Source of the DNA: Escherichia coli
GTDB lineage: Bacteria > Pseudomonadota > Gammaproteobacteria > Enterobacterales > Enterobacteriaceae
Length of the DNA stretch: 64,000 bases
Strand: one strand, 5' to 3'
Assembly (NCBI RefSeq): GCF_009931435.1
Contig: NZ_CP043414.1
Both the position numbers and the translations under genes were made by a program. The notes under the pieces are model-generated. The model did no database searches, had not been told where the DNA came from, and saw only the letters and a program-made list of their open reading frames with translations. Shown piece by piece: positions 35,801 through 44,558 of the stretch; position 1 is the first letter of the stretch; each line of letters begins with the position of its first letter.

Positions 35801-37396
35801 TTAATGACGCCACGGGATAATGTTACGCCAGTTAAACTTGAAGGGGGGGGCCGGATTACCGATAGCGCGACATTAACTATCGGAAATGGCGTCGATACGA
35901 CGCTTGCCGACCTGACGGCTGCCAGCCGGGGCAGTGTCTGGCTTAACAGCAATAATTCCTGTGCAGGCACCAGCAACTGCGAATATAGAGTAAACAGTTT
36001 GCTCCTCAACGACGGTGATGTTTATTTATCAGCACAAACAGCAGCGCCTGCCACAACTAACGGTATCTACAATACGCTGACCACCAGTGAACTTTCCGGC
36101 AGCGGTAATTTCTACCTGCATACCAACGTTGCAGGCTCCCGGGGCGATCAACTGGTCGTCAACAACAACGCCACTGGCAATTTTAACATCTTTGTTCAGG
36201 ATACCGGCGTCAGCCCTCAGTCTGACGACGCGATGACGCTGGTGAAAACAGGGGGAGGGGATGCTTCGTTTACGCTGGGTAATACCGGCGGTTTCGTTGA
36301 TCTTGGGACCTATGAGTATGTCCTGAAAAGCGACGGCAACAGCAACTGGAACCTGACCAATGATGTCAAACCCAACCCGGCCCCCAACCCAAATCCGAAA
36401 CCGGATCCAAAACCAGACCCAAAACCGGATCCGAAACCAGACCCGACTCCCGATCCAACGCCGACACCCGTCCCGGAGAAACGCATCACGCCTTCTACGG
36501 CAGCCGTACTCAATATGGCAGCAACATTACCGTTGGTCTTTGATGCTGAGCTAAACAGTATTCGCGAGCGGTTGAACATAATGAAAGCGAGTCCACACAA
36601 CAATAATGTCTGGGGGACGACGTATAACACCCGTAATAATGTCACCACCGATGCGGGTGCCGGGTTTGAGCAGACGCTGACCGGAATGACGGTGGGGATC
36701 GATAGCCGTAATGGTATTCCTGAGGGGATTGCTACGCTGGGCGCTTTTATGGGTTATTCCCATTCACATATCGGTTTTGATCGTGGAGGACATGGCAGTG
36801 TGGGCAGTTATTCTCTGGGGGGCTATGTCAGCTGGGAACATGAAAGTGGTTTCTATCTGGACGGTATCGTGAAGCTGAACCGCTTTGAAAGTAACGTAGC
36901 CGGTAAAATGAGCAGCGGTGGAGCCGCCAACGGCAGTTATCGCAGCAACGGGCTGGGCGGTCACATTGAAACCGGGATGCGATTTACCGATGGTAACTGG
37001 AACCTGACGCCGTATGCATCGTTAACGGGGTTCACCGCTGATAACCCCGAATATCATTTATCCAATGGTATGGAATCGAAATCAGTCGATACCCGCAGTA
37101 TATATCGTGAACTGGGCGCAACGCTGAGTTACAACATGCGTCTGGGGAACGGCATGGAAGTTGAGCCGTGGCTGAAGGCGGCTGTGCGCAAAGAATTTGT
37201 CGATGATAACCGGGTGAAAGTGAATAATGACGGTAATTTTGTCAATGATTTGTCGGGCAGACGTGGAATATACCAGGCAGGTATTAAAGCCTCATTCAGC
37301 AGTTCGTTAAGCGGGCATCTCGGGGTGGGGTATAGCCATGGTGCCGGTGTGGAATCCCCGTGGAACGCGGTGGCTGGTGTGAACTGGTCGTTCTGA
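32822..37396 (+). CDS. ypjA: AIDA-I-type autotransporter adhesin YpjA
   Basis: ORF 32735..37396; start placed at MNRTSRYYFRRSVLSLLISALIYAPPGMA signal peptide after GAGG RBS; repetitive passenger, Pro-rich linker, C-terminal beta-barrel ending ...NWSF. Confidence 0.85.
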   Translation: MNRTSRYYFRRSVLSLLISALIYAPPGMAAFTSNVIGVVNDETVDGVQKVDERGTTNNTHIINHGRQDVYGGVSNRSLIESGGYQDVGGHNNFVGQANNTTINGGRQTIHDGGISTGTIIESGNQDVYTGGISNGTTIKGGNSHISGGTANGTIIDGGSQRVTTQGHVDSTTINKSGSQDITQGSLATNTTINGGRQYVEQSTVETTTIKNGGEQRVYESYALDTTIEGGTQSLNNKSTAKYTQIYSGGTQIVDYTSTSDVIEIYSGGVLDVSGGTATNVTQHDGVILKTNTNGTTVSGTNSEGAFSIHNHVADNVLLENGGHLDINAYGSANKTIIKDKGTMSVLTNAKADATRIDNGGVMDVAGNATNTIINGGTQNINNHGIATGTNINSGTQNIKSGGKADTTNISSGSRQVVEKDGTATGSNISAGGSLIVYTGGIAHGVNQETGSALVANTGAGTDIEGYNKLSHFTITGGEANYVVLENTGELTVVAKTTAKNTTVDAGGKLIVQKEAKTDTTRLNNGGVLEVQDGGEAKHVEQQSGGALIASTTSGTLIEGTNSFGDAFYIRNSEAKNVVLENAGSLTVVTGSRAVDTIINANGKMDVYGKDVGTVLNSAGTQTIYASATSDKANIKGGKQTVYGLATEANIESGEQIVDGGSTDKTHIKGGTQTVQNYGKAINTDIVSGLQQIMANGTAEGSIINGGSQVVNEGGLAENSVLNDGGTLDVREKGSATGIQQSSQGALVATTRATRVTGTRADGVAFSIEQDAANNILLANGGVLTVESDTTSAKTQVNAGGREIVKTKATATGTMLTGGEQIVEGVANETTINDGGIQTVSANGEAVKTTINEGGTLTVNDNGKATDIIQNSGAALQTSTANGIEISGTHQYGTFSIAGNLATNVLLENGGNLLVLAGTEARDSTVGNGGAMQNLGQDFATKVNSGGQYTLGRSKDEFQALARAEDLQVAGGTAIVYAGTLADASVSGATGSLSLMTPRDNVTPVKLEGGGRITDSATLTIGNGVDTTLADLTAASRGSVWLNSNNSCAGTSNCEYRVNSLLLNDGDVYLSAQTAAPATTNGIYNTLTTSELSGSGNFYLHTNVAGSRGDQLVVNNNATGNFNIFVQDTGVSPQSDDAMTLVKTGGGDASFTLGNTGGFVDLGTYEYVLKSDGNSNWNLTNDVKPNPAPNPNPKPDPKPDPKPDPKPDPTPDPTPTPVPEKRITPSTAAVLNMAATLPLVFDAELNSIRERLNIMKASPHNNNVWGTTYNTRNNVTTDAGAGFEQTLTGMTVGIDSRNGIPEGIATLGAFMGYSHSHIGFDRGGHGSVGSYSLGGYVSWEHESGFYLDGIVKLNRFESNVAGKMSSGGAANGSYRSNGLGGHIETGMRFTDGNWNLTPYASLTGFTADNPEYHLSNGMESKSVDTRSIYRELGATLSYNMRLGNGMEVEPWLKAAVRKEFVDDNRVKVNNDGNFVNDLSGRRGIYQAGIKASFSSSLSGHLGVGYSHGAGVESPWNAVAGVNWSF

Positions 37397-37406
37397 CCAT
37401 CAACGA

Positions 37407-37430
37407 AAAAGCCCACATCTGTGGGCTTTC
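37407..37430 (+). terminator. Rho-independent terminator after ypjA
   Basis: aaaaagcccacatctgtgggctttc: 6 bp GC-rich stem, 4 nt loop, T-rich tail. Confidence 0.7.
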
Positions 37431-38146
37431 ATATCACCAGGAGCCGCGGCTCCTTTGCGTATCCTTTTATGTCTCCTCACCGTCTGGTCGGTGTCTTGCT
37501 GAGACTTCTAACTTCCTGTTTTTGTTGGTGTTGTCCTTGTACCGTCCAATCATGATGCTGGCGTCTCTGTAATTAGTTATGTAATAACATGATAAATAAA
37601 TGGTTATTTGATTTAATAATAATTTAGGGTGCTAAAAAGGAACCATTAAATCTAAACTATCTGGTATTGCCGCATTTCTTATCAACCATATGATGGGCAA
37701 GATAGCACAACCATCAGTTCAGCTACCATCAGGGAGTTGAATTCAAAGTCATCACAACAAAACCCTCTCTGTTTGCTATAAACGAGATGAAGATTGGTAT
37801 TGCCACCACTACCGTATCAATCAGGGCGAAAGGTTGAGCTAAAGAGGGTAAAGCTCGACCTCACGTCTTAGAAAATGCTGTCCTTCAAACATGATTAGTG
37901 CAGAATTTAAACTGATTACTCGTAATGCCCTAATAAATATGAATATTTTAAAATAGGTTAAAACAGCCAAACTTATAGCACTTTTTGCTAAAGTCCTTAA
38001 AGCCTCGTCCTGTCACCTCATCCACGCTGCTCTTCGCCATCTGTGTAAAAAATGCTCAATAACGAAATAATTCCGGCAAAGCAGGTGTTGATTGTCATAC
38101 GCGATATTCGAATAATAACTCCATCAAAACAACAATGGAGAAATAT

Positions 38147-38347
38147 ATGGCAGTAAGAAGATTTATTCGTTTACCTGAAGTTATCAACAGAACTGGCTAT
38201 GGCAAAACATGGATTTATCACCTTATCAAGCGGGGTGAATTCCCTGAACCTATAAAGACTGGTGCAAGAACAATAGCATTTATTGAAAGTGAGATTGATG
38301 AATGGATTGAAGCTATTATTCGAAACTCACGCCAGAACGCAGCATAA
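38147..38347 (+). CDS. alpA: AlpA-family (excisionase-like) transcriptional regulator
   Basis: FIRLPEVINRTGYGKTWIYHLIKRGEFPEPIKTGARTIAFIESEIDEWIEA matches AlpA/phage regulatory HTH pattern. Confidence 0.8.
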   Translation: MAVRRFIRLPEVINRTGYGKTWIYHLIKRGEFPEPIKTGARTIAFIESEIDEWIEAIIRNSRQNAA

Positions 38348-38416
38348 AAACAGAAATAGGATCTCGTGTCGAACAGATATCTGTTCGCTCAGGGAATCTT
38401 ATTACCCTAAACAATA

Positions 38417-38719
38417 ATGGAGAAGAGTATGAAGATAGAACTTATTACGACAAAACAGTTTATTGAACAAGCCGAATGTTATTTCAGGAACTATATAGAC
38501 GGATTGCGGAGGAATGCACCAGATGATTTTTATTATTTTCTCAACAATAAATACAATATGAATGACATTATGGAAAGTATCATTAAAAAAACGAGATATC
38601 ATTTTTATGATGACACAGAAGAAGGTAAAAGGAATCGGATTTATGGAGAAGTAAGCCACAGTAAGGTAAAGCAACACCTTCGTCAGCTTTGGATTGTCTA
38701 TAAATGTGTATACCGCTAA
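38417..38719 (+). CDS. Hypothetical protein
   Basis: 100 aa ORF downstream of alpA, same strand; no recognisable motif. Confidence 0.4.
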   Translation: MEKSMKIELITTKQFIEQAECYFRNYIDGLRRNAPDDFYYFLNNKYNMNDIMESIIKKTRYHFYDDTEEGKRNRIYGEVSHSKVKQHLRQLWIVYKCVYR

Positions 38720-38771
38720 TACTTATACAAATATTTTGCTATTCCAATATTAAACTAAATAGGAAATAAAA

Positions 38772-39068
38772 ATGAATACATTTAAAAATAAATCTACTGA
38801 AATCTTTTATGTTGTGTCCTTGCATATCTACGCGGAGCTTTTTAACTCAAAGGATAAAACGACCAGCAATATGATTATAACGCATGTAATGGATCATGAG
38901 TTTGTCTGTAGGCTAATCGATCTGGCGATGAGAAATGCTGAGAAGCATCTTCTGAAAAAAGCATGGAAAAAGAACGCTGCTGAAAAACTGTCTGAGGTGG
39001 ATTTTAAAGGGGTTAAGCAGGCATTAGCTAAAATGCATTACACTGTTCTGGCGGAATCAATATGTTGA
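38772..39068 (+). CDS. Hypothetical protein
   Basis: 98 aa ORF, same strand as alpA cluster; no recognisable motif. Confidence 0.4.
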   Translation: MNTFKNKSTEIFYVVSLHIYAELFNSKDKTTSNMIITHVMDHEFVCRLIDLAMRNAEKHLLKKAWKKNAAEKLSEVDFKGVKQALAKMHYTVLAESIC

Positions 39069-39116
39069 TATGTTCTGACGTCTATCGGCCCCTTCTTGGG
39101 GCTGATAATCGGATGA

Positions 39117-39599
39117 TTAAGGTGCTATTCTGCGGCGAGCTTTGTTTTGCTGCTGTTCAATGGTTGAGGCTATGGTCGATAGTTGCTCAAGACTCTGTTC
39201 AATTGAACGCTGGAACGCAACAGCGGCTTCAGTACGTTGTTTTATGACCAAGGCTACTATTTCTTCATCGCTCTTTTCTGAAATGGCCTTACGGTATAAT
39301 ACGCGTTCGTTAAATAAATCGAGATTACCAGTTGGTCTCGCTGATGTATTAGCTTTTGAACTGCTGATGGGATTTAACTCGTCAATAAAGTATTCAATAA
39401 GAGATTCTCTCTTCTTTTCAAGTCTGCGAAGTTCGGTATGTGCAGATTTAAATTTCTGAGCCTTAACTAATGGAATATCATCGGAACGCAGTTTGCGATA
39501 TTCATTTCTGTATTCTTCTATCGAAATATGATTTTATAGTTCTTTGACTGTATTTACACATTCGATTAAATCACTGTTGTCTGTTTTTACTTTTCTCAT
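39117..39599 (-). pseudogene. Hypothetical gene interrupted by an in-frame TAA (codon 22)
   Basis: Minus-strand frame ATG at 39599 reads MRKVKTDNSDLIECVNTVKEL-stop then 138 further sense codons with no Met or stop until 39117. Confidence 0.35.
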
Positions 39600-39753
39600 A
39601 AGAAATACCTCGTAAATAAAATGGTTGATATATTTATATTACGAGATATGGTGTTAGTGTCAAATTAGCTCTTTAGCTCTCTTGGCAAGAAAATACCTTT
39701 AATGCAATCGTAGTTTATTACGGTGATTTTTTTAACCTGTTTCCCGCTGGTAA

Positions 39754-40311
39754 TTAATTTTTATTATTCACTGGTTTCTTTTTTTCCTTCAAGTAATAAG
39801 TTTTCATGAAAGTCAAACGATCACCATTAAACATATAGTCTGGATTAATAAAATAATAGTTTTGTATCATGGTCTCAGCAATAAATTTCTTGTCAGCAAG
39901 TTCTTTCATCCCTTTGAAATATGTCGTTCTTGATATTTTTACAATCTCTTGATCAACAATATCGAATGACATTAATATCGTATCTGTATCTTTATTGTCT
40001 CTAATAGCAAGATACAGTATCTTAAATACTTTCTTACCTGATGAGGATAAACCCTCAATAGCTGATACGCCATCCACATAAAGTTTCACGAACTGTGTCT
40101 TGTCTACTTCCATTGACTGAAAGAAACCACCATGTCCAACCTGTTCTCCTGTATTTTCATTTACTACGGCTAAGCGATCTTTTCCTGTTGTGATACGTCT
40201 GATACCTGTTTTTGTATGTATATTTGTATCATTAAGGAATGGGTTTTTTACATGGCGAGGTAGACCTCTTCTTGATTTCTTTACTTCCGTTTGTATTTTA
40301 TTTTCTATCAT
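39754..40311 (-). CDS. Hypothetical protein, possibly DNA-binding or replication-associated
   Basis: 185 aa basic ORF adjacent to a highly structured repeat-containing intergenic region; function not recognisable by eye. Confidence 0.5.
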   Translation of the reverse strand: MIENKIQTEVKKSRRGLPRHVKNPFLNDTNIHTKTGIRRITTGKDRLAVVNENTGEQVGHGGFFQSMEVDKTQFVKLYVDGVSAIEGLSSSGKKVFKILYLAIRDNKDTDTILMSFDIVDQEIVKISRTTYFKGMKELADKKFIAETMIQNYYFINPDYMFNGDRLTFMKTYYLKEKKKPVNNKN

Positions 40312-40721
40312 GATATTTACTCCTTTATTTTTTTAGTTATACATTTAAGTAAATACTATATTTTGTGTGCAAGTCAATACTTAAAATTTATATTTTTTAA
40401 AATAACTAACACTTGATGTTTTTACGTATAAAACTTGTAGTGCTACAGAATATATACAAATAACACTTTATTATTTTTATTTGAGAATAGTTATCAACTT
40501 AAGTACCGGGATTCGGGACTTTAACTCCCGAGAGTGCGTACTTTGTTTTAAGCTATAGCTGGCTTGAGAGCAGTTTTCTTCTTCATTATTCAAATAGCGA
40601 AGCTTTGGATGACATTTTAAAGAATGTAATATTGAAAATAGTTCTTCTTTTTAGTTTATTGGTGCCTTATCAAAATGGCACCAGTGGTGTTATCTGTTTT
40701 ATTTTTCCGACTATGTTATTA

Positions 40722-40758
40722 CAGCGAAGTGATTGTGTGGAACAATCACGAATCGCTG
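40722..40758. repeat. 37 bp near-palindromic element copy 1 (CAGCG-AA-GTGATTGT-N5-ACAATCAC-GAAT-CGCTG)
   Basis: Read directly; perfect 8 bp inner inverted repeat plus outer 5 bp arms. Confidence 0.7.
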
Positions 40759-40860
40759 CTTTTATTGTGAGAGCTTAATTAATTTTTCTTTTACTTTATA
40801 TGCGTCTTCGACGCGATCTTTTTTTGGATAAATCCATCATTAACAGGGGCAAGCCCTGTC

Positions 40861-40897
40861 CAGCAAAGTGATTGTCGGCAACAATCACGAAATGCTG
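40861..40897. repeat. 37 bp near-palindromic element copy 2 (CAGCA-AA-GTGATTGT-N5-ACAATCAC-GAAA-TGCTG)
   Basis: Same architecture as copy 1; outer arms changed on both sides so pairing is preserved. Confidence 0.7.
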
Positions 40898-41227
40898 CTA
40901 CTAAAGATATAGTTTTCCTATACGTTTAAGAGCAAATGCTATATGTCAGATGGGGAATGCTATGTTTAAACATAGGATCTGAATTAAAAGTTAAAAGGAA
41001 AATAGATCTAACTATGTTCGAATACATTCGCTTATTACCTCATAGTAGTAAAATAAAATACAAAATGTCAGTTTTAGGGCGTAGCCGTGCGTAAGCATAG
41101 AGATAAATATCTTTTCAAAAAGAAGTTTAAAAATAATAAGTAAAAGCATGAAGAAAACACAGATATATTTGATTTTTACGCTTACGATAGAGTATTAAGC
41201 AGTAATAAATAAAAAAGGGAAAACACA

Positions 41228-41497
41228 ATGAACAATATCAAAATGATTACGCTCTTCTATCCCCATGAAAAAACACCATTTATGATCTGTATTGTAAACA
41301 AAGTAGAAGATACAGAACTTGGATTGAAATTAACTCTTGAAAACGGCAACAACATTTGTGTCAATAATTATAGTCATTATCTGTTATCAGAGTCTGTAAA
41401 TCGTTGTAATAAAGAAAGGTTAAAGAGTATTTATATTCGCTTGGTTTCAGAACTCACGCAGATGAGTGAAGAAACTATAAAATCGCAGATGTTTTAA
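41228..41497 (+). CDS. Hypothetical protein
   Basis: 89 aa ORF, first of four co-oriented genes. Confidence 0.45.
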   Translation: MNNIKMITLFYPHEKTPFMICIVNKVEDTELGLKLTLENGNNICVNNYSHYLLSESVNRCNKERLKSIYIRLVSELTQMSEETIKSQMF

Positions 41498-41579
41498 AAG
41501 TTATATTGAACATAATAAATATTTTTGATATTACGGTCAGTTGCATGGTATTAAATAAAAGAATAACAGGAAAAATATC

Positions 41580-41984
41580 ATGCGAAAAATAAAAACAAAA
41601 ATCTACTTGCCTACAGCTTTAACAGGAAACATGGATAAACACTATATCCCTGTTCTAGAGGATTTAAGAAAAGCGATATACAGCGACAGAATGTTATCAA
41701 GGCTTGCAGATAACGGTAGTATTGTTATCCATAGTTCAGTTGGGTATCCGGTTGCTAAATACAAAAACACGGGGATTAGCATAGGTATAGAACCATTGAA
41801 TCCAATGATAAGACAAGATCTGACTCTTGGATATATCGTGGTCGTCAGAAACGGGAAATCATCACAGGAGATTAATGGTTTACTTAACAGGTCATTGCCA
41901 AAAGCAATAAGCACTTTTAAGGATCACATCAATGAATATGAAGCAGTAAAAAGTAAAATGCGACAACAAACTATGATCTGGTAA
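41580..41984 (+). CDS. Hypothetical protein
   Basis: 134 aa ORF, 82 bp after preceding gene. Confidence 0.5.
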   Translation: MRKIKTKIYLPTALTGNMDKHYIPVLEDLRKAIYSDRMLSRLADNGSIVIHSSVGYPVAKYKNTGISIGIEPLNPMIRQDLTLGYIVVVRNGKSSQEINGLLNRSLPKAISTFKDHINEYEAVKSKMRQQTMIW

Positions 41985-42021
41985 AATATTTAATCTGATA
42001 ACTTCAGGAGGAGGATGAGCG

Positions 42022-43005
42022 ATGGAAGGTAAGTTAATTTTTTGTTCCGATGCAATACTACGGTTTCAGTCCGATTACGATGAAACCGCTGCCGTTCCAT
42101 TGCTATCCATCCAGAACGTCATAGCCGATACCGATCCGTTCTTTCTTCTCCGTTTCTTCCACCATACCGTTCTGATTGAAGAAGGAACAACGCTGGCAAG
42201 TATCTTTCTGGCAATAGAACCGTGGAAGGCTTTGTTAGCGGCTTATCTGGACAGAGATGTTGGTGCTTATATAGATGAGGTAAGAAAACCGTCCGGGCCA
42301 ACGACATGGGATATTGAATGGATTGGGATTGATCGTCGTAGCATGGTTTACCGCGCTTATAAACGTCAGGAGATGCAGGATGGAGAGGATTTTTCTGACT
42401 ATTTAAACCGGGAACGCGTTCTGACCGATGAATTTGAAATTGAAAGTGGCTGTGAGGCTTCTGGCTACATTAAAGGTGATAAAGAACGCTGGAGCATCAG
42501 TGGTGATGTTCACGAGATAAAGAATCTGCCTGTAATCCTCTATAGCAAACAGACATTGATGACTTCACCGAAAGACGGTTTGCTGAAGAAAAACGTATCG
42601 GGTGTGAAGAGTTCCAAGCACAGTTGCTTCGTTTATGGCGATACCTCGTTTTCATTGAGAGAGGTTATGGAAGCCATCTACATTAGCGGGCTGTTCTTCT
42701 ATGCGCCAAGAGACGCCGCCAGTAGTCTTGATGCGCTGAAAGCGAGTGTGGCTGGACTGGAAGACGAACTGACCGAGGTGCCTGAAACAGAATCGGATAA
42801 TAATGAAACAGATGAAGAACCTACCATCGTCGTAGCCGACGGTGCTTTTGATTCGCTCGCTGCTCACATGGAGTCTGAAAAAGCGGAGTGGCAATACATT
42901 AAGAAGTTGTGCCAGCAAGATAGCGAGCTGCCCATACGTATTGGTAGTATCAGAATAGCTGAGCCTGCGGAGCTATGTATTGGCGGGAAAATCTTACATG
43001 AATAG
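42022..43005 (+). CDS. Hypothetical protein with acidic C-terminal segment
   Basis: 327 aa ORF, 37 bp after preceding gene; locally higher GC than neighbours. Confidence 0.55.
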   Translation: MEGKLIFCSDAILRFQSDYDETAAVPLLSIQNVIADTDPFFLLRFFHHTVLIEEGTTLASIFLAIEPWKALLAAYLDRDVGAYIDEVRKPSGPTTWDIEWIGIDRRSMVYRAYKRQEMQDGEDFSDYLNRERVLTDEFEIESGCEASGYIKGDKERWSISGDVHEIKNLPVILYSKQTLMTSPKDGLLKKNVSGVKSSKHSCFVYGDTSFSLREVMEAIYISGLFFYAPRDAASSLDALKASVAGLEDELTEVPETESDNNETDEEPTIVVADGAFDSLAAHMESEKAEWQYIKKLCQQDSELPIRIGSIRIAEPAELCIGGKILHE

Positions 43006-43171
43006 GTACAGGCAACAGTTAGCATTGTGGTGAAAGGATATGGTGTATGTTTGCTCACTTTTTTGTGTTATCTCCTGATCAACCCTATGTCGACTATGGT
43101 AAAATTCCCAACTTTAACACCAACGTAGCAAGTGTTTTATGAGCGCGTAGTCAACCAGTAAGGACATTGAA

Positions 43172-44089
43172 TTGAACATTAACGCAACACCAGTATTAAT
43201 TACACTTGTCTACGAAGCGCTTTTAAGATCCTTTTGGCGTAAACCCGCACTCAAAAAATTTTTGTTATCGTCGCATATTTCTGAAAGCTTCATTTCAACT
43301 TGGAGAGAAGATGAATCAAAAAGAAATTTTTTAGATCGTTTGTTCCCTAAATTACAAAGTAGTGCAAAAGGAAAAAATGTTATCTGCCATATGGCAGTTA
43401 ATCTTTCTGAACAGACTTCTTTTCCTGATTTAAAAGGCTGGGAAGATTCTCTACAAATGATTCAATCTGCAACTGATGCCATAAAAGATTTAAAAAACTA
43501 TATAACAAAACAAAATGAAGAACATCAGACTGAAAAAGAAAAACAAGAGTTCAGAGCACGAGCAGAAAAAGAGAGAACTGAAATAAAACGCTCTGAGACG
43601 GATTTGATGAAATTAAAGAATGAATTTGAGTGTTTGCATAATGAAATAGGAACTCAAAATGGTGGCTACGCATTTGAAAAGTGGTTTTTTAAACTTGTAG
43701 ACTACTGTGAAATTGTCTGTAAAAAACCATATAAAACTAATGGTAGGCAAGTAGATGGAGCCATAACTATTGAAGGCACTACGTACCTTGTTGAATTAAA
43801 ATTTCAGAAAACACAGGCTGACGCCATCGACATCGACTCATTAAAAGCTAAAGTGAGTAAAATGGCTGATAACACGATGGCTGTAATGATTTCTGTATCA
43901 GGTTATTCCTCTGTTGCCATAACTGAATCATCGGGTAGTCGAACCCCTTTATTATTATTAGATTATAGCCATTTATATTTATTCTTGAGTGGTGGAATGA
44001 GATTTGATGAAATAATTACACGGATAAGACGCCATTCTTCACAAACAGGAGAATCTTACCTATCTGTAAATTCATTTGGTGGATTTTAA
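43172..44089 (+). CDS. Protein with C-terminal PD-(D/E)xK (Mrr-like) nuclease motif
   Basis: 305 aa; GGYAFEKWFFKLVDYCEIV...VDGAITIEGTTYLVELKFQK fits E...D...(E)xK restriction-endonuclease-fold signature; N-terminal region with coiled-coil-like stretch. Confidence 0.55.
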   Translation: MNINATPVLITLVYEALLRSFWRKPALKKFLLSSHISESFISTWREDESKRNFLDRLFPKLQSSAKGKNVICHMAVNLSEQTSFPDLKGWEDSLQMIQSATDAIKDLKNYITKQNEEHQTEKEKQEFRARAEKERTEIKRSETDLMKLKNEFECLHNEIGTQNGGYAFEKWFFKLVDYCEIVCKKPYKTNGRQVDGAITIEGTTYLVELKFQKTQADAIDIDSLKAKVSKMADNTMAVMISVSGYSSVAITESSGSRTPLLLLDYSHLYLFLSGGMRFDEIITRIRRHSSQTGESYLSVNSFGGF

Positions 44090-44149
44090 ATAAACAATAA
44101 TGCTGTATGAAGTAATCTCAGCATTATTGTTTCCAATAATTAATGTTGG

Positions 44150-44527
44150 TTAATCCATCAAGCCGCGTGAAGTCTTACTTGCAGTATGACGAAAATCATA
44201 ACGTTCCACAACATCACCCTTAAACCAGATATCCAGTGATTTAATATGTGCTGTGCTGCTATTGGTCAACAGAGCAAGGCCCGGTATGTAGTTAGATAGC
44301 TGGCTTTCTCCCGTCATACTTGAGTAGTTCCACATCTCCTGTCCATCATTCGTAGCGCGTGTCTGAGGCTCTCCAAAGGCAGCAAGAATTTCTTGTTGGG
44401 TTGTTTTTCCATTGACGATTTTAACTTTAACCGTCTGATGATTTTCATCAGTTAGGGATTTATTACCATGAACGGTACAGCCACTAAGTGGTAATATGAT
44501 AAAAATAGCAAATAACAATTTTTTCAT
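44150..44527 (-). CDS. Lipoprotein, BamE/OmlA-like pattern
   Basis: ORF 44150..44569; start at MKKLLFAIFIILPLSGC (lipobox); G.T.QQ...G.P pattern resembling SmpA/OmlA fold. Confidence 0.55.
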   Translation of the reverse strand: MKKLLFAIFIILPLSGCTVHGNKSLTDENHQTVKVKIVNGKTTQQEILAAFGEPQTRATNDGQEMWNYSSMTGESQLSNYIPGLALLTNSSTAHIKSLDIWFKGDVVERYDFRHTASKTSRGLMD

Positions 44528-44558
44528 TTTAGTTCCATAAATAGATGATAGATGAGAC

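Follow-up and report, generated by a model that had tools for sequence, protein, structure and literature searches.

The window analyzed here, a stretch of 64,000 nucleotides of Escherichia coli DNA (RefSeq assembly GCF_009931435.1, contig NZ_CP043414.1), contains a mobilizable genomic island of ~19.5 kb, whose low GC content (37.7%) sets it apart from the core (~50%). It is bounded on one side by a 1553-aa autotransporter gene (32735-37396) and on the other by an integrase gene (55625-56854) together with the ssrA tmRNA gene (57019-57381). The backbone of the island comprises genes for an AlpA-type recombination directionality factor (RDF), two conserved proteins of 98 and 100 aa, a DUF4756 protein, a RepL-like winged-helix protein, a DUF4755 protein, lipoproteins, a MobQ relaxase, TraD, a type IV pilin and PilV; positions 38276-52180 match the annotated island of E. 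coli 2016C-3878, with its mobQ, traD, bfpA-like pilin and pilV genes, at 93%. Between PilV and the ssrA-side integrase lies a cargo, a Lamassu anti-phage system (52247-55079, minus strand). A second low-GC stretch (36.8%) occupies 29700-32700, between a CAT-anticodon tRNA gene (29605-29680) and the autotransporter gene, and encodes a 484-aa DUF5507+DUF5508 protein (30432-31886). The gene of concern here, that of the DUF4756 protein, and the features around it are as follows:

38135..38347, plus strand: AlpA-like RDF (Phage_AlpA Pfam matches on orthologs; 62% identity to the homologue at locus L008)
38772..39068, plus strand: convergent 98-aa conserved island gene of unknown function (phrog_19730, E 5e-49; the same neighbour in the islands of E. 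coli GCA_038076705.1, L010, and Salmonella, L011)
39069..39116, no strand: 48-bp spacer from the DUF4756 stop to the convergent 98-aa gene, the place of variable cargo in other islands
39117..39599, minus strand: the DUF4756-family pseudogene (160 sense-codon positions and a terminal stop, interrupted by a stop at codon 22)
39120..39533, minus strand: 138 codons stranded past the stop, the same as in the intact allele (codons 23-160 match L010 without a difference)
39534..39536, minus strand: premature ochre stop TAA, codon 22 (from the alignment; AAA in 19 of 19 comparators)
39537..39599, minus strand: leftover translatable ORF of 21 codons (MRKVKTDNSDLIECVNTVKEL), spanning helix 1 of the predicted structure and the unstructured N-terminus ahead of it
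39608..39611, minus strand: Shine-Dalgarno GAGG, 8 nt 5' of the ATG, intact
39636..39663, minus strand: strong sigma-70-type promoter, TTGACA, 16-nt spacer, TAATAT (10 of 12 consensus matches), intact
39754..40311, minus strand: upstream neighbour, RepL-like protein (SEN1990 winged-helix type in ROD21), 185-aa ORF intact (PF05732, E 1.5e-5; annotation of RefSeq orthologs)
52247-54019, minus strand: LmuB of the Lamassu system (PADLOC E 2e-224)
53991-55079, minus strand: LmuA of the Lamassu system (PADLOC E 2e-137)

An earlier note, made by reading this DNA alone, had described a minus-strand frame that opens with the ATG at 39599-39597, runs for 21 sense codons into a TAA at 39536-39534 and then stays open for 138 codons free of both Met and stops. 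We confirmed this description as accurate throughout; the frame closes with a terminal TAA at 39119-39117. The long open stretch beyond the internal TAA is not a product of chance, since 138 stop-free codons have a probability of ~8e-5 at the base composition of the island and shuffling the stretch 20,000 times never gave a version devoid of stops. A listing of the in-frame start-like codons past the stop yielded no ATG or GTG; the earliest canonical start is a TTG at 39251 (codon 117), with no evident Shine-Dalgarno sequence or ribosome-binding site ahead of it.

The same note had called the product unrecognizable by eye. To profile searches it is readily recognizable: with the stop replaced by Lys, the bridged product matches the Pfam family DUF4756 (PF15948) at E 8e-59 and 198.6 bits, the gathering threshold of the family being 25 bits, and the match spans residues 1-157 of the protein and positions 1-156 of the 158 in the profile. 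No function is attached to this family, however, and the corresponding PHROGs match, phrog_38784, is likewise annotated as of unknown function. By its whole-protein HMM score and near full-length coverage, the window copy is a DUF4756 member by descent; yet, where a functional member is an uninterrupted ORF of ~155-160 codons, this one has a TAA at codon 22 and is a pseudogene. DNA homologues of the gene occur in 723 of 5,426 complete E. coli genomes, under the annotation 'DUF4756 family protein', and the family is very narrow, with 37 representatives at 50% identity (many of them fragments) among 1.84 billion proteins. Pairwise dN/dS values of 0.05-0.28 among intact orthologs indicate that DUF4756 is a real protein-coding gene, held under purifying selection.

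The AlphaFold2 model of the product (pLDDT 86, pTM 0.73) is all-helical, and predicts a small protein with a long C-terminal helix ending in a basic tail. Its helix 1 corresponds to residues 9-21 and ends exactly at the stop, which thus takes away everything past the first helix. Searches with the product found nothing below E 0.4 in the PDB and no match in NCBIfam or PADLOC, and a structure search with the predicted fold returned no informative relative.

The decisive observation concerns the state of codon 22 in the relatives of the gene. As a check, the earlier note had proposed asking whether the TAA position is a sense codon elsewhere, and it is: AAA (Lys) is found in 19 of 19 comparators, namely 17 E. 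coli loci (16 complete genomes and the draft L010), one Salmonella locus and Citrobacter youngae. The Salmonella allele recurs, intact, on more than 1000 contigs, and in more distant DUF4756 members the equivalent position is occupied by K, R or N. The earlier note had also allowed for two outcomes at odds with a broken gene, i.e., orthologs sharing the stop along with a separate downstream start, or a downstream frame without coding conservation. We found neither: each ortholog is one continuous ORF of 155-160 aa, without the stop and without a second start, and the above range of dN/dS makes the coding conservation of the downstream frame clear.

The closest of the intact copies is that of E. 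coli GCA_038076705.1 (contig JARHOZ010000029.1, locus L010), whose 160-aa protein, P0001, is 100% identical to the window product once Lys22 is restored. The two islands align over 12,046 bp at 99.2% identity; in both, the cargo slot downstream of DUF4756 is empty and the chromosomal neighbour is the end of the autotransporter gene. Across the ~2.8 kb from 37557 to 40385 they differ at just two bases: 39536, where the coding strand has T in the window and A in its relatives, and 39628 in the leader. The former is the sole difference in the coding sequence, the other 159 codons being the same. At 39628 the window has the base of most other islands, whence L010 is the derived one at that site; hence, the nonsense substitution is the only change in the window lineage in these ~2.8 kb. 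Most of the other backbone ORFs shared by the two are of equal length, with differences of 5 to 14 codons in the remainder.

Some further comparisons with L010 may be recorded here. We considered and rejected the residues C14, P88 and A127 of the window copy as marks of decay, since intact P0001 has all three; they are older than the stop. Amid the otherwise ~99.9%-identical backbone, a 1.1-kb patch at 40876-42004 is ~6% divergent and looks like a recombination tract; it covers two small ORFs (41228-41497 and 41580-41984) as well as non-coding DNA past the 5' side of the RepL-like gene. The apparent start of the ORF at 42022-43005 is moved by a 1-bp indel at 42038. Beyond AlpA, L010 (12044-20275) differs from the window (37400-38135) in carrying a reverse-transcriptase gene, an SMC/AAA-ATPase gene and an IS3-family transposase; the first two of these are possibly a retron- or DRT-like defence system.

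The expression signals of the gene are likewise those of its intact relatives. Its promoter is kept in 12 of the 12 aligned loci, whichever gene lies upstream, and the ACGAGG motif in 11 of the 12. Indeed, the promoter/leader block at 39600-39670 on the minus strand (ATTTGACAC..CCATATCTCGTAATATAAATA..ACGAGG) is conserved nearly base for base in these 12 islands, even though identity between their proteins falls as low as ~55% and the upstream gene is not always the same. As conservation of this block exceeds that of the coding sequence, its invariant spacer may be an operator.

Taken together, these observations make it highly probable that the window carries a private and very recent AAA-to-TAA nonsense mutation in its DUF4756 gene. 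The earlier note had offered a recently inactivated gene as one of its two readings, and the uniform AAA of the comparators, the near-identical intact allele and the single coding difference at 39536 give that reading strong support. Three findings speak for a pseudogene made by a nonsense mutation: (i) the orthologs have a sense codon at the site; (ii) the family is a real coding gene under purifying selection; (iii) there is no alternative downstream start with a ribosome-binding site. Briefly, we propose the following course of events. One A-to-T transversion on the coding strand would have turned the Lys22 codon AAA into the ochre stop TAA. The gene is probably still transcribed, and ribosomes starting at 39599 would be released at 39536-39534 by RF1 or RF2, the outcome being a 21-residue peptide with only the first predicted helix. 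The 138 codons past the stop would be left untranslated, because no in-frame ATG or GTG follows and the sole TTG, at codon 117, lacks an evident ribosome-binding site. Other genes should escape any polar effect, since the next gene is convergent and 48 bp away. That no second mutation has accumulated points to a lesion that is very young in evolutionary terms.

Within the collections searched, the lesion appears to be private to this genome. The 31-mer with the TAA (GTCAAAGAACTATAAAATCATATTTCGATAG) has no exact match in the JGI metagenome contigs; a 35-mer allowing either A or T finds only Citrobacter youngae, with AAA, among the GTDB species representatives; and in the complete E. coli genomes the best match to the gene is ~94-96% identical, with all of the sampled comparators having AAA.

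The foremost alternative is that the T at 39536 is a base-calling or assembly error, the true codon being AAA and the gene as intact as it is in the GCA_038076705.1 island. That this base is the only coding difference from the intact allele, that the mutated 31-mer is found nowhere in the metagenome contigs, that the best match to the gene among the complete E. coli genomes reaches only ~94-96% identity, and that the site falls within a homopolymeric run of six A residues are all in keeping with such an error. However, errors in homopolymers are typically insertions or deletions, whereas here we have a substitution; neither the ORF list of the 64-kb window nor the 12 kb common to L010 shows a further internal stop or truncated ORF; and real lesions of the DUF4756 gene are on record in finished genomes. 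We hence consider an error unlikely.

Next, the TAA might be decoded, via leaky readthrough or an ochre-suppressor tRNA such as a mutant tRNA-Lys, so that a functional full-length protein is still made. Classical lysT-derived ochre suppressors insert Lys, which is the wild-type residue at this site, the 138 downstream codons are perfectly preserved, and the expression signals are intact. Nevertheless, a very young lesion would leave the downstream frame intact anyway, and TAA is the most efficiently terminated of all stop codons in E. coli. Programmed readthrough would call for conservation of the stop among orthologs, of which 0 of 19 have it, so that there is no conserved recoding site, and for a known stimulatory RNA element; an Rfam search of 37400-41200 gave no structured element at the locus and no match at E <=1 other than one chance-level snoRNA elsewhere. 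A candidate for the suppressor tRNA is also wanting within the window, where we found only the CAT-anticodon tRNA and the tmRNA. The second reading of the earlier note, that the stop is bypassed, thus gains no support, there being neither conservation of the stop in any relative nor a recoding context, and we regard a functional product made by decoding of the TAA as very improbable. The milder version, in which an ochre-suppressing tRNA-Lys variant or the A-rich context lets the codon-22 TAA be read at a meaningful rate, leaving the gene down-tuned rather than dead, also strikes us as a very slim prospect.

We give hardly any credence to reinitiation, in which the short ORF would be followed by a separate protein from a non-canonical start, e.g., the ATT at codon 25 or the ATA at codon 27. 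Terminating ribosomes are able to reinitiate close by, and these near-cognate codons do lie 2 and 4 codons past the stop. Against this, the frame offers no in-frame ATG or GTG and no Shine-Dalgarno-like sequence before codons 25-27; the product would be without helix 1 of a compact predicted fold; and every ortholog is a single ORF of 155-160 aa without an internal start signal, on which ground we rejected a two-gene organization. Frameshifting or hopping was also rejected, for the conserved downstream frame is frame 0, such that only readthrough could rescue the gene, and an overlapping known RNA was rejected as Rfam found none.

Coming back to the preferred reading of a recent nonsense mutation, similar lesions have struck this gene elsewhere. 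Two of the 16 inspected copies from complete E. coli genomes are annotated as pseudogenes, those of TUM18781 and MS 21-1. The TUM18781 copy resembles that of the window in having its own inactivation in the A-run at codons 21-23 and in sharing the same C-terminal variant, and differs in that its lesion is a +1 A frameshift. MS 21-1 shows an independent inactivation by a TAA at codon 79 of a divergent allele (75% identity). The public protein sets further contain several frameshifted fragments of the gene. In light of these independent lesions, the sporadic decay of an accessory DUF4756 gene is unremarkable. The run of six A residues at codons 21-23 (CTAAAAAAT; 39532-39537 on the minus strand of the window, 6420-6430 of L002 in TUM18781) has thus been hit independently in two genomes, by an A-to-T substitution in the window and by a +1 A in E. 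coli TUM18781, in both cases on the same C-terminal variant; this may be either coincidence or a small mutational hotspot. Separately, in E. coli ECOR29 (L012 1208-1883) DUF4756 is preceded by an alternative to the RepL-like gene, which encodes a 263-aa hypothetical protein; this gene bears an internal stop and is itself annotated as a pseudogene, a further sign of ongoing decay in such islands.

With 14 of the 16 inspected E. coli complete-genome copies (a non-random sample) and the copies on more than 1000 Salmonella contigs being intact, loss of DUF4756 is the exception and may come at some cost. The lesion itself is an ordinary gene inactivation of an already-known kind, and neither a recoding event nor new biology. 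It calls for annotation of the locus as 'DUF4756 family protein, pseudogene (internal stop)', as the NCBI pipeline already does for comparable copies. Its value is modest: the window offers a natural knockout of a conserved, uncharacterized island gene, for which GCA_038076705.1 provides a near-isogenic intact island for comparison.

The 3' end of the gene has a history of its own. The last ~20 codons (39117-39180, minus strand) exist in two variants, and which of them is present matches the downstream content without exception. The common variant (…SEFEPSSQKRRKMSL) was found at 16 loci, each with an Hfp-type H-NS paralogue on the same strand ~155-160 bp downstream. The rarer variant, of the …STIASTIEQQQNKARRRIAP / STIEQQQNKARRRIAP type, is that of the window and was found at 4 loci (the window, L010, Salmonella L011 and TUM18781), with no H-NS gene there. 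This co-variation indicates a breakpoint of cargo exchange inside the 3' end of DUF4756, at ~39178. Cargo found at the spacer position in other E. coli includes H-NS paralogues, NACHT, Ser/Thr kinase or DUF6404 genes; in the window, L010 and Salmonella L011 the slot after DUF4756 is empty. Mapping in the UPEC strain 536 has placed the main transcription start of hfp 339 bp ahead of its ATG. By our own arithmetic this start would fall inside the 3' part of DUF4756, which may explain why the 3' end travels with the hfp module. The close linkage to the H-NS paralogue Hfp, immediately downstream in most islands, suggests that DUF4756 might have a role in the regulation of island genes. As regards the neighbour on the other side, the RepL-like SEN1990 is dispensable for replication or maintenance of ROD21, and SEN1991, directly downstream of it, is slightly, not significantly, up in the SEN1990 mutant (PMC10655114); from its position, we infer that SEN1991 is the DUF4756 gene.

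Against this background, the island can be compared with the published EARL (Enterobacteriaceae-associated ROD21-like) family, the description of which gives an Asn-tRNA gene as the common integration site. ICEKp258.2 of K. pneumoniae, a member of this family, has a DUF4756 gene listed beside an H-NS homologue, and SEN1998 is the RDF in EARL islands. The likeness extends to the AlpA-type RDF, DUF4755, the SEN1990-type gene, DUF4756 and the low GC content, as well as to the conjugation/pilus backbone of MobQ relaxase, TraD, type IV pilin and PilV; the island of L010 has Pfam matches to MobA_MobL and TraD. In contrast, the pairing of an excision/integration module of P4-like integrase and AlpA-type RDF with an Asn-tRNA site is not what we find here: the window island adjoins ssrA instead of an Asn-tRNA gene, and its P4-type integrase shares only 32% identity with that of a typical E. 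coli EARL island. It also differs in being without an H-NS paralogue and in having the Lamassu system as its cargo. We found no exact direct repeat of at least 12 bp between the 3' end of ssrA and the left end of the island that could serve as a left att repeat. The integration module of the window island looks to have been swapped. At the level of the gene, the proteins annotated as 'DUF4756 family protein' in RefSeq (WP_023155936.1 of E. coli D7 and KPNJ2_RS27855 of K. pneumoniae ICEKp258.2) have the same size, the same promoter and the same place beside the RepL-like gene as the window copy, which departs from them in its codon-22 TAA and its less common C-terminal variant (…STIASTIEQQQNKARRRIAP) with no downstream H-NS paralogue. 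Thus, by its backbone the island corresponds to the EARL family, with an integration module that differs.
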